Source: Escherichia coli
Lineage (GTDB): Bacteria; Pseudomonadota; Gammaproteobacteria; Enterobacterales; Enterobacteriaceae
NCBI RefSeq assembly: GCF_003334335.1
Contig: NZ_QOWQ01000068.1
DNA: 8,688 nt
Direction: 5' to 3' (one strand)
Of this stretch, positions 769 through 1,778 are shown in pieces. The position numbers and the translations under genes are program-made. Numbering within the stretch: position 1 is the stretch's first letter; the number at the start of each line of letters is the position of its first letter. The notes under the pieces are model-generated. The model did not search any database. It saw only the letters and a list, made by a program, of their open reading frames with translations, and was not told where the DNA came from.

Positions 769-1329
769 ATGAAGAAGATAATATTATTAGCCATGATTAT
801 TGGTTCTTTAACAGGTTGCGCTAGTGTGCCACCATTGAATTTTTCAACACCTAACGTGGGAGTTAGCCAGAAAAAAATAGATGCTGAAATTAAGTCATTA
901 ACGGTATCACTTGCTCGTCCAGATGAGCAGAAAGGGGATATCACTGCTGGTATGGAGGCTATAACTCCAATTTGGCGTGAATCTTTGCAGGAAGCACTCG
1001 ACCGAATGACTATTTTTCGTGATAGTTCACCAAATACGGTTAGCTTAAATGTTAAAGTGTTGGCTCTTGACGTTCCTGCTTTTGGTGTTTCAATGACAAC
1101 TAAAGCAATTGCAAGGTATGAAATAATCAACCGTGCGAATGGTGATATTATATATACGCAGGATATTGAGTCTACCGGTACTGTTCCAGCCAGTTACGCA
1201 TTCTACGGTATTGTTCGAGCACGCGAATCTGTTAATCGCGCGGTGCAAAACAACATAACGCAGTTCTTGCAAGCATTAGAAAGTGTTGATCTTTCTCGTC
1301 CAATGTTTCCTGTTAGGGTAGCTAAATGA
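769..1329 (+). CDS. Lipoprotein of unknown family (186 aa)
   Basis: N-terminal signal peptide MKKIILLAMIIGSLTG followed by Cys17 (lipobox LTGC); Ala at +2 rather than Asp suggests outer-membrane sorting. Good RBS. Stop TGA (1327-1329) overlaps the next gene's ATG (1326-1328). AT-rich codon usage. Confidence 0.8.
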   Translation: MKKIILLAMIIGSLTGCASVPPLNFSTPNVGVSQKKIDAEIKSLTVSLARPDEQKGDITAGMEAITPIWRESLQEALDRMTIFRDSSPNTVSLNVKVLALDVPAFGVSMTTKAIARYEIINRANGDIIYTQDIESTGTVPASYAFYGIVRARESVNRAVQNNITQFLQALESVDLSRPMFPVRVAK

Positions 1330-1778
1330 AGCGATTATTCGTAATTGCTCCACTCTTAGTGTTGGTTGGATGCGCACAAAATATATCGCCAAATAGTTAT
1401 TCTGTTGGCTCTGTGGGCATGGTTAATCGAACTATCGCTGGTACAGTTATTAGTGCTAGGGGGGTTGATATCAGTGGGACTTCCGCGTTAGGCGGGACTG
1501 CTGGGGCTGCCGTGGGGGCAACCGCTGGTTCTGCGCTTGGTGGGGGAGTTCGTTCTAATATCGTTGGTGCCGTTGGTGGTGCAGTCATTGGTGGTATTGC
1601 CGGGGCAGCAATCGAATCTTCAGCAACAAAACAAACAGGCATGGAATATGTTGTCGAAACTGAGAATGGGAATTTAATGACCATTGTTCAAGGCAAAGAT
1701 CCGTTATTTACTCAAGGAAGTAAGGTCCTTGTTTTATACGGAAACCCTTCTCGCATAATAACAGACCCGCGTCACTAA
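1326..1778 (+). CDS. SlyB/Pcp-family glycine-zipper outer-membrane lipoprotein (150 aa)
   Basis: Lipobox LVGC with Cys16. Central Gly/Ala-rich zipper (GGTAGAAVGATAGSALGGG...VGAVGGAVIGGIAGAAI). N- and C-terminal segments (AGTVISARGVDISG; KQTGMEYVVETENGNLMTIVQG...SKVLVL) resemble, from memory, E. coli SlyB (YGTIVNVRPVQIQG; KTQGVELEIRKDDGNTIMVVQK...QRVVLA). AGGG Shine-Dalgarno 7 nt upstream; ATGA overlap with the upstream gene. Confidence 0.85.
   Translation: MKRLFVIAPLLVLVGCAQNISPNSYSVGSVGMVNRTIAGTVISARGVDISGTSALGGTAGAAVGATAGSALGGGVRSNIVGAVGGAVIGGIAGAAIESSATKQTGMEYVVETENGNLMTIVQGKDPLFTQGSKVLVLYGNPSRIITDPRH

Follow-up and report, generated by a model that had tools for sequence, protein, structure and literature searches.

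The lipoprotein SlyB has recently been shown to protect the outer membrane through ring-shaped nanodomains that enclose proteins and misplaced phospholipid. Also called Pcp and known from Escherichia coli and Salmonella, it is an outer-membrane lipoprotein regulated by PhoPQ, and its assemblies have been described by cryo-electron microscopy as SlyB13-BamA (PDB 7OJF) and SlyB11 (7OJG). The present work deals with a relative of this protein encoded in a stretch of 8,688 nucleotides of E. coli DNA (assembly GCF_003334335.1, contig NZ_QOWQ01000068.1), called the window from here on, which belongs to a lambdoid prophage and comprises its early-right and lysis region. The gene concerned is the open reading frame (ORF) at 1326-1778 (+), named gene B, and the ORF at 769-1329 (+) is named gene A. 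An earlier note, made from the letters of this DNA, had described B as a prophage-encoded SlyB-like glycine-zipper lipoprotein. What is new beyond that note is that B forms the second gene of a conserved cassette of two lipoproteins, in which a member of the SlyB superfamily is combined with a partner of predicted PqiC/LptE-type fold, obligate within the clade and disseminated as a phage moron.

The literature covers SlyB, YfgH and the slyB paralogues of Yersinia; no paper was found in it that connects prophages, morons or superinfection exclusion with lipoproteins of the SlyB-like or glycine-zipper kind, and nothing was found there on the gene A partner, the protein accessions, the PHROG identifiers or PhiR30.

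YfgH of E. coli is, as predicted for B, an outer-membrane glycine-zipper lipoprotein, is proposed to form rings (bioRxiv 10.64898/2025.12.22.696046) and also has an adjacent gene, yfgI, which starts 15 bp downstream (K-12, locus L063, 7793-8866). However, its BLASTP match to B is marginal (E = 0.009) and covers the N-terminal part only, and a closer kinship of B with YfgH than with SlyB was rejected. YfgI shows no similarity to A, which was likewise discarded as a YfgI relative. The yfgH-yfgI arrangement nevertheless suggests that other SlyB-like lipoproteins may also have dedicated neighbours.

Concerning mobile elements, Llp of phage T5, Cor of phi80, N15 and HK022, and Bor and Lom of lambda resemble A and B in being small envelope proteins encoded by accessory genes of mostly temperate phages. 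Llp and Cor, however, are single small FhuA-specific proteins without homology to A or B, whereas A-B is a pair with cross-class conservation. TraT of F-like plasmids (PDB 9fsm, 9e2v; PMC11733297) is a surface-exclusion and serum-resistance lipoprotein made of a single polypeptide that forms a decamer. It has no detectable sequence homology with A or B, and the Foldseek matches of B to it are not significant (E 0.17-0.35).

Gene B as a SlyB relative

The features of the two genes are the following (positions in the window, with the evidence in brackets).

769..1329, + strand: gene A, 186-aa predicted outer-membrane lipoprotein (lipobox LTG followed by C17, Ala at +2)
1326..1778, + strand: gene B, 150-aa SlyB-superfamily predicted outer-membrane lipoprotein (sequence, phmmer, BLASTP, AlphaFold2, Foldseek)
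1326..1373, + strand: signal peptide and lipobox of B (Cys16 codon at 1371-1373)
1431..1475, + strand: N-terminal beta strand of B, aa 36-50, part of the predicted periplasmic domain (AlphaFold2; aligns with SlyB 37-51)
1491..1625, + strand: predicted glycine-zipper helical hairpin of B, aa 56-100 (AlphaFold2, Pfam, BLASTP alignment, motif count)
1629..1763, + strand: predicted C-terminal beta domain of B, aa 102-146 (AlphaFold2, where it is the best-predicted part; family alignment)

The B ORF runs from an ATG at 1326 to a TAA stop and encodes 150 aa, exactly as the earlier note had it. Its product begins with MKRLFVIAPLLVLVG followed by C16-A-Q, which corresponds to a signal peptide and a lipobox (LVG followed by C16) with Ala at +2, and the product of A begins with MKKIILLAMIIGSLTG followed by CAS. 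Under the Lol sorting rule of E. coli, Asp at +2 is the inner-membrane retention signal; since both proteins carry Ala at this position, both are predicted to be outer-membrane lipoproteins. Of the 47 residues at 51-97 of B, 15 are Gly and 12 are Ala, with seven G-x-x-x-G motifs arranged in two blocks (56-72 and 81-93). B is a genuine gene rather than a chance ORF, given the homologues, invariant alignment columns and selection described below.

Among the PDB sequences, SlyB was the sole significant phmmer match of B (E = 1.3e-14, 57.6 bits, B 2-149 against SlyB 3-155), and a profile of 21 B-family members again matched SlyB alone (E = 5.3e-15). The pairwise alignment with K-12 SlyB, proposed as a check in the earlier note, was significant and ran end to end (BLASTP, 33% identity, 55% positives, E = 7e-13); hence the likeness to SlyB that had been recognised in the C-terminal segment is in fact full-length. 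The AlphaFold2 (AF2) model of B, based on the family alignment, presents a strand at 36-50, helices at 56-71 and 75-100, and strands within 102-146. Together with the lipobox, this reproduces the SlyB/Pcp architecture that had been read from the letters (N-terminal strand, glycine-zipper hairpin and C-terminal beta domain). The mean predicted local distance difference test score (pLDDT) is 61.7, with 74-84 in the C-terminal domain and the lowest values in the hairpin, as expected for the monomer of a ring former. Foldseek comparison of this model with the PDB gave a chain of the SlyB13-BamA complex, 7ojf_A, as the sole significant match (E = 1.4e-8, template modelling scores 0.64/0.69, 139 columns).

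Regarding domain databases, the search of glycine-zipper profiles suggested in the earlier note did return PF05433 (i-Evalue 3e-4, 21.1 bits) and PF13488 (6e-3, 16.9 bits), but these matches are weak; a precomputed PF13488 hit is present in many B homologues. No NCBIfam model came near its cut-off with B, and in PHROGs the protein is assigned to phrog_13877, "unknown function". The homologues amount to 581 at E<=1e-3 in a word-indexed search, and to 2200 cluster representatives (50% identity) at the same threshold.

The residues that contact lipid in SlyB have been described: I65, V69, F73, N76 and R84 for phospholipid, and G79, G80 and T82 for lipopolysaccharide (LPS) (PMC12408116, Fig. 3 legend). 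In the BLASTP alignment, the hairpin turn G72-G73-G74-V75-R76 of B corresponds to G79-G80-G81-T82-G83-R84 of SlyB. The family alignment of 21 sequences has 47 invariant columns, Cys16 among them, and Gly15 is nearly invariant. R76 (SlyB R84), G72 and S69 (SlyB N76) are also invariant, G79 and G80 are conserved as G72 and G73, and T82 is replaced by V75 in B, where the family consensus is T. Other family-invariant residues include E107-Y108-V109, L135-Y138 and D147-P148-R149 of B and, in A, R116-Y117-E118 and R150-R152-E153-S154.

In summary of this comparison, SlyB and B share the lipobox, the size (155 and 150 aa), the order of domains, full-length homology, and the GGG.R turn with its Arg (R84 in SlyB). 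They differ in the C-terminal motifs EYVV.T.NGNLMT.VQG and VLVLYG.PSRII.DPR, which are specific to the B family, in the helix-1 contacts, which are T/A/T in B, and in overall sequence, with 33% identity where an enterobacterial slyB orthologue would be expected to show approximately 75% or higher. Moreover, slyB is monocistronic and located between anmK and slyA, whereas B is found on phages and islands, has no PhoP context and is preceded by A within its clade. On sequence and predicted fold, B is therefore best described as a distant paralogue within the SlyB superfamily. The term paralogue of the earlier note stands, but not in the sense of a copy of slyB; orthology was rejected, considering the position between ren and ninB and the low identity.

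Linkage and selection of genes A and B

The 19 non-redundant loci where B shows at least approximately 56% identity all have A directly upstream, on the strand of B. In 13 of them, the stop codon of A and the start codon of B overlap by 4 nt, and in the remainder the genes abut or differ by at most 14 nt. In the window, the overlap is the tetranucleotide ATGA (1326-1329), whose arrangement suggests translational coupling. Clustering of the flanking ORFs over the 19 loci gave A, B and antisense shadow ORFs alone, with no third conserved gene. A 138-aa gene that follows B in Pusillimonas was considered as a third component and discarded, as it is not conserved elsewhere.

A search of IMG/VR by means of A yielded 36 viral loci, with B directly after A in 32. 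In the other four, where A is 54-60% identical, A is followed by an unrelated small signal-peptide protein (for example L103, 8001-8851, and L104, 7971-9042); L103 is also a lambdoid Q/nin-type region. Conversely, B-like genes of at most 55% identity stand without A in the chromosomes of Oxalobacter, Pragia, Legionella and others. Owing to these two kinds of loci, the A-B partnership is clade-specific and not absolute. The standalone gene of Pragia fontium (L033, 3705-5318) shows 46% identity, and two ORFs approximately 640 bp upstream of it look CRISPR-associated, which we take to be possibly of the type I-F Csy/Cas6f-like kind.

Between homologues, A and B differ at 0.10-0.32 of their non-synonymous sites (0.14-0.32 for B), while synonymous sites are saturated (0.70-0.89 for B), and dN/dS is 0.08-0.14 where computable. 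Both genes are under strong purifying selection.

The partner gene A

The taxonomic spread of A homologues is parallel to that of B, at similar identity levels. A has no domain in the Pfam scan and no membership in NCBIfam by sequence. Its AF2 model is confident (pLDDT 82.5, predicted template modelling score 0.77) and points to a beta-alpha-beta3-alpha fold like that of PqiC/DUF330, LptE and PelC. Neighbours of A in AFDB50 are named "ABC-type transport auxiliary lipoprotein component", DUF4410, DUF4136 and LptE. Proteins of the LptE/PelC/PqiC fold are typically located at the periplasmic face of the outer membrane, often form rings, and bind LPS, lipid or a barrel. The closest known folds are PqiC/DUF330, the "ABC-type transport auxiliary lipoprotein component" (PDB 2iqi, 8q2c), LptE and PelC, but, in addition to the lack of family membership, A differs from them in having no MCE/Pqi, Lpt or Pel genes nearby and a SlyB-like partner instead.

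The name "UDP-N-acetylglucosamine acyltransferase" is attached to A in PhiR30_1 (PV340558), an isolated phage, and in numerous NCBI and UniProt records. This identity was rejected, since such an enzyme is cytoplasmic and has the LpxA-type left-handed beta-helix of hexapeptide repeats, whereas A has a signal peptide, a lipobox and a predicted alpha/beta sandwich, without any match to hexapeptides or to a beta-helix; the name is a propagated misannotation of the A family. Membership in the YajG family, a label given in some genomes by the NCBI annotation pipeline (PGAP), has marginal support: the NCBIfam model NF008637 gives E = 0.17 and 11.4 bits against a cut-off of 242, no Pfam domain is found, hhalign with K-12 YajG reaches a probability of 73% (E = 3e-5, 120 columns, partly in the signal peptide), and the top 50 AFDB50 matches of A do not include YajG.

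Distribution and insertion sites of the cassette

In the window, the gene order is ren, A, B, ninB/ybcN, ninE, ybcO, rusA, ylcG, quuD, nmpC (-), essD, rrrD, rzpD/rzoD, bor (-) and ybcV, so the statement that B is prophage-encoded holds, B being placed between ren and ninB of a lambdoid prophage. PhiR30_1, a plaque-forming phage of 47 kb, lambda-like and propagated on E. coli C, carries the same module at the same junction. About 280 of the 5426 complete E. coli genomes (approximately 5%) contain a module of 1.5 kb (284-1780), always in single copy, chromosomal and at least 99% identical. Its 485-bp leader (284..768) was found by megablast in 280 of the 5426 genomes, with one copy each and 279 at >=99% identity, and at least 80% of the interval 700-1900 is held by 279 genomes, matching this count; in E. 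coli the leader was found only together with the cassette. For 2884 E. coli records, the match is confined to the stretch of the query equal to window 1782-1900, in the backbone upstream of ninB. The GC content of the module is 0.40, against approximately 0.51 in the adjoining backbone.

Outside E. coli, B homologues of 60-77% identity occur in Klebsiella, Edaphovirga, Pantoea, Salmonella, Serratia, Bordetella, Pusillimonas, Janthinobacterium, Rhodoferax, Paraburkholderia, Lysobacter, Azospirillum and others. The cassette is mobile across alpha-, beta- and gammaproteobacteria, and its two proteins remain 55-75% identical between E. coli, Klebsiella, Pantoea, Bordetella, Pusillimonas, Lysobacter, Azospirillum and others.

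In a Salmonella prophage (L008, 3388-10580), the cassette is located in a lambdoid nin region crowded with toxin-antitoxin modules. The pairs around it are YdaS/YdaT, ParE/PaaA2, PemK/MazE, YoeB/YefM and HigBA. In Edaphovirga cremea (L006/L012, 5444-6453), it lies in the gap between lpxP and fis/dusB, beside TumE/HVO_A0114-type genes. Glycine zippers occur in some pore-forming toxins, and this feature, together with the coupled two-gene architecture beside such modules, could be read as an abortive-infection or toxin module, where B would form a triggered membrane pore and A would be its inhibitor or immunity factor. We consider this very improbable, since both proteins are predicted to be sorted to the outer membrane, the one significant structural match of B is to a protective scaffold, no PADLOC family matches, and A occurring alone with another neighbour and B-like genes occurring alone in chromosomes are unexpected for a toxin-antidote pair.

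In a lambda-like prophage of Pantoea, the cassette is inserted between the tape-measure gene and gpM, with a GC of 0.44 against 0.53 in the flanks. A strong intrinsic terminator is found 6 nt past the B stop, inside the tail operon (L068, 8459-8478), with an 8-bp GC-rich stem and a T-run, readable on both strands; upstream of A, no clear promoter was seen at this locus. One viral contig has the cassette behind the gene for the large terminase subunit. Four high-GC viral contigs have it on the strand of a CI-type repressor gene (phrog_4/phrog_6201), 43-122 bp downstream of that gene, while replication genes, where identified, are on the opposite strand, and L101 has a divergent cro-like gene. 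This is the position that rexAB occupies in lambda, and, being on the repressor strand, it implies transcription in the lysogen.

These positions bear on a possible role in the lytic cycle, in which the pair would hold the outer membrane until spanin-mediated disruption, or would tune lysis. In E. coli the cassette, placed between ren and ninB, belongs to the delayed-early transcript from pR, the cassettes of Pantoea and of the viral contig L095 are within late operons, and SlyB-type rings stabilise a stressed outer membrane. However, the post-cI position in four phages belongs to the lysogenic transcript, the Pantoea terminator that directly follows B within the tail operon is the mark of an autonomous unit, islands devoid of lysis genes also carry the cassette, and the window already has a full holin/endolysin/Rz/Rz1 set. 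A lytic function is for these reasons regarded as improbable.

The non-phage contexts are an IS66-adjacent site in Pusillimonas, a resolvase-adjacent island, a variable island of Klebsiella oxytoca and the lpxP-fis gap of Edaphovirga. The last of these is also the site of SlyB "paralog 2" of Yersinia (bioRxiv 10.64898/2026.06.08.730324), which suggests that this gap is a hotspot for SlyB-like insertions. The GC of the cassette tracks that of the host, from 0.42 to 0.65, and is below that of the flanks in most phage contexts; because of this tracking, the spread is taken as old and the conservation as selective.

Overall, the cassette was found at four independent insertion sites in phages (the nin region, between tape-measure gene and gpM, after the large terminase subunit, and after cI), with variable presence at a fixed junction, a deviating GC and, in Pantoea, its own terminator. 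These observations support a moron unit, and the A-B pair behaves as a phage moron.

It could still be argued that A-B arose in betaproteobacteria as an ordinary pair of envelope lipoproteins and was spread passively by mobile elements, with a hitch-hiking SlyB paralogue and without any phage-related role. In favour of this, Oxalobacter and Pragia have standalone B-like genes in their chromosomes, slyB paralogues are expanded in environmental bacteria and Yersinia (bioRxiv 10.64898/2026.06.08.730324), and the Edaphovirga cassette shares its gap with the Yersinia paralogue. Nevertheless, unrelated temperate phages captured the pair repeatedly and independently at different sites, a near-identical copy is kept in the E. 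coli genomes described above, and the strong purifying selection and host-tracking GC point to a function long maintained on mobile elements. Passive spread has, in our opinion, little probability.

Proposed function in the outer membrane

Our leading proposal, held tentatively, is that A-B is a lysogenic-conversion cassette for prophage-controlled hardening or remodelling of the outer membrane, acting on a conserved envelope component. A and B would make up a single cassette of two translationally coupled lipoprotein genes, which moves horizontally and is carried as a moron by temperate phages. Lol would bring both products, once processed at their lipobox cysteine, to the outer membrane, where B would insert its glycine-zipper hairpin as SlyB does and oligomerise into rings around lipid patches and/or beta-barrel proteins. 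A could dock onto this assembly of B and serve as its nucleator, cap or specificity factor. The outcome would be a PhoPQ-independent hardening or remodelling of the outer membrane, and the lysogen could gain tolerance to detergents, bile, antimicrobial peptides, serum and other outer-membrane damage, with a reduced accessibility of outer-membrane proteins as a possible by-product. Expression in the lysogen, ring formation, the physical A-B interaction and the phenotype are all steps that we infer.

PqiC belongs to an MCE lipid transporter, and the predicted PqiC/DUF330/LptE/PelC fold would link A, like SlyB, to the lipid homeostasis of the outer membrane. In the case of SlyB, suppressors of slyB map to Mla (bioRxiv 10.64898/2025.12.22.696046). 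As the pair stays 55-75% identical across classes, in phages with unrelated tails and in non-phage islands, it probably acts on an envelope component that is itself conserved (phospholipid, LPS or conserved machines) and not on a single hypervariable receptor. A role in envelope fitness also fits PhiR30_1, because this phage already carries nmpC, bor, lom and an omptin gene.

Superinfection or surface exclusion is a second, rather doubtful explanation. Here a ring of B with A beneath it would cage outer-membrane receptors or block the passage through outer membrane and periplasm, so that the lysogen would be protected from phages, colicins and conjugation, and progeny phage would be spared inactivation on debris, in analogy to Llp of T5, Cor and TraT of the F plasmid. 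In many temperate phages, the cassette is indeed placed at positions typical of exclusion or defence morons: after cI like rexAB, among the toxin-antitoxin modules of the nin region, and in the tail module. SlyB encloses BamA (7ojf) and reportedly also OmpF/C/A, LptD and TolC, and TraT is a precedent for an outer-membrane lipoprotein of a mobile element that forms an alpha-helical ring and gives exclusion and serum resistance (PMC11733297). On the other hand, neither protein matches any family of PADLOC-DB v2 at E<=1, the matches to Cor in PHROG (E 0.11-0.25) cover signal peptides only, and TraT is not detected by sequence with the family profile of A or of B. The receptor masks Llp and Cor are narrow and track the phage's own receptor, unlike a pair conserved across classes. 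Receptor shielding, which the earlier note had thought plausible, fits poorly, since identity is kept across hosts with different receptors, across unrelated tail modules and in non-phage islands.

A receptor-agnostic form of exclusion can also be pictured: B rings would cage barrels or the Bam/Lpt machines with A as a lid, and would bar phage genomes, bacteriocins or conjugative DNA regardless of the receptor used. It is an unlikely variant; if true, such a device would add a new mechanistic class to superinfection exclusion and extend the SlyB nanodomain principle to two components. Envelope fitness is ranked first and exclusion second, the two are not mutually exclusive, and the computed results do not separate them.

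Several observations weigh against hardening or remodelling of the outer membrane by an A-B unit. As described above, A is found without B in four of the 36 IMG/VR loci, and B-like genes of lower identity are found without A. The monomer model of B has low confidence in the hairpin (pLDDT 44-56). The hydrophobic helix-1 residues I65, V69 and F73, with which SlyB contacts phospholipid, are the small residues T58, A62 and T66 in B, and owing to this replacement the lipid-nanodomain mechanism of SlyB may not transfer to B. The cassettes of E. coli, Pantoea and contig L095 are inside early or late lytic transcription units, and for that reason the proteins may also, or only, be made in lytic growth. 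Promoter-like sites in the E. coli region number 6 against a shuffle expectation of 4.8, which is no enrichment, and the site at 712-739 is a candidate. Finally, E. coli already has chromosomal slyB and yfgH, beside which the added value of another stabiliser is unclear.

The cassette represents a natural SlyB variant with a dedicated partner, presumably co-translated and of a predicted lipid- or barrel-binding fold, that temperate phages have captured repeatedly. It bears on how SlyB-type rings are nucleated, given specificity and regulated. If remodelling of the outer membrane is its true function, it would offer a tractable two-component system for ring assembly, a new class of lysogenic-conversion and possibly exclusion function, and a role for PHROG families 13877 and 12521, both of unknown function, and for a protein family mislabelled as an LpxA-type acyltransferase. 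Its presence in approximately 5% of complete E. coli genomes and in the plaque-forming PhiR30_1 makes it directly testable.

Other features of the window

The remaining features around the cassette are listed below.

1..283, + strand: 3' end of ren, left backbone flank (ren of PhiR30_1, 10372-10665, maps up to window 283; PGAP "protein ren")
284..768, no strand: AT-rich leader of the inserted module (GC approximately 0.32-0.39; composition profile and megablast)
321..527, - strand: antisense small ORF, 68 aa (ORF list; PhiR30_1 coding sequence XSB42264.1)
712..739, + strand: candidate sigma-70 promoter-like site GTGATA-16-TATAAT (consensus scan, 10/12, approximately 30 nt upstream of gene A)
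1818..1848, + strand: stable hairpin with an 11-12 bp stem and without U-run (RNA fold; 40 nt past the B stop)
1969..2424, + strand: ninB/ybcN, right backbone flank (ORF list, PhiR30_1 and PGAP annotation)
4031..5113, - strand: nmpC/ompD-type porin gene (ORF list; PhiR30_1 annotation OmpD)

The antisense ORF at 321-527 encodes two predicted hydrophobic helices; PhiR30_1 lists it as hypothetical, and PGAP leaves it unannotated. It accompanies the module in E. coli but was discarded as a part of the system because tblastn over all loci matched only the two E. coli loci. An Rfam search of window 1-2400 gave no match at E<=1.

The hairpin at 1818-1848 is in the ninB-upstream segment common to approximately 2900 E. 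coli records, and the fold of 1779-1870 has -25.3 kcal/mol (z -3.3). As this segment is shared by many lambdoid prophages, the hairpin is assigned to the phage backbone and not to the cassette, and it may be a backbone terminator or a regulatory element of the nin region.

Regarding the porin, the earlier note had remarked that the same prophage carries nmpC, and a minus-strand ORF of the nmpC/ompD type is indeed present in the window. This co-occurrence is not specific: PhiR30_1 has six accessory genes directed to the outer membrane (A, B, the nmpC/ompD porin, bor, lom and omptin), cassettes elsewhere have no adjacent porin, and a specific link between A-B and nmpC was rejected, as the other cassette contexts give it no support. 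The ORF is uninterrupted in the window and split into two coding sequences in PhiR30_1, and in strain JNQH498 the same porin gene is annotated as an ompC pseudogene with an internal stop.

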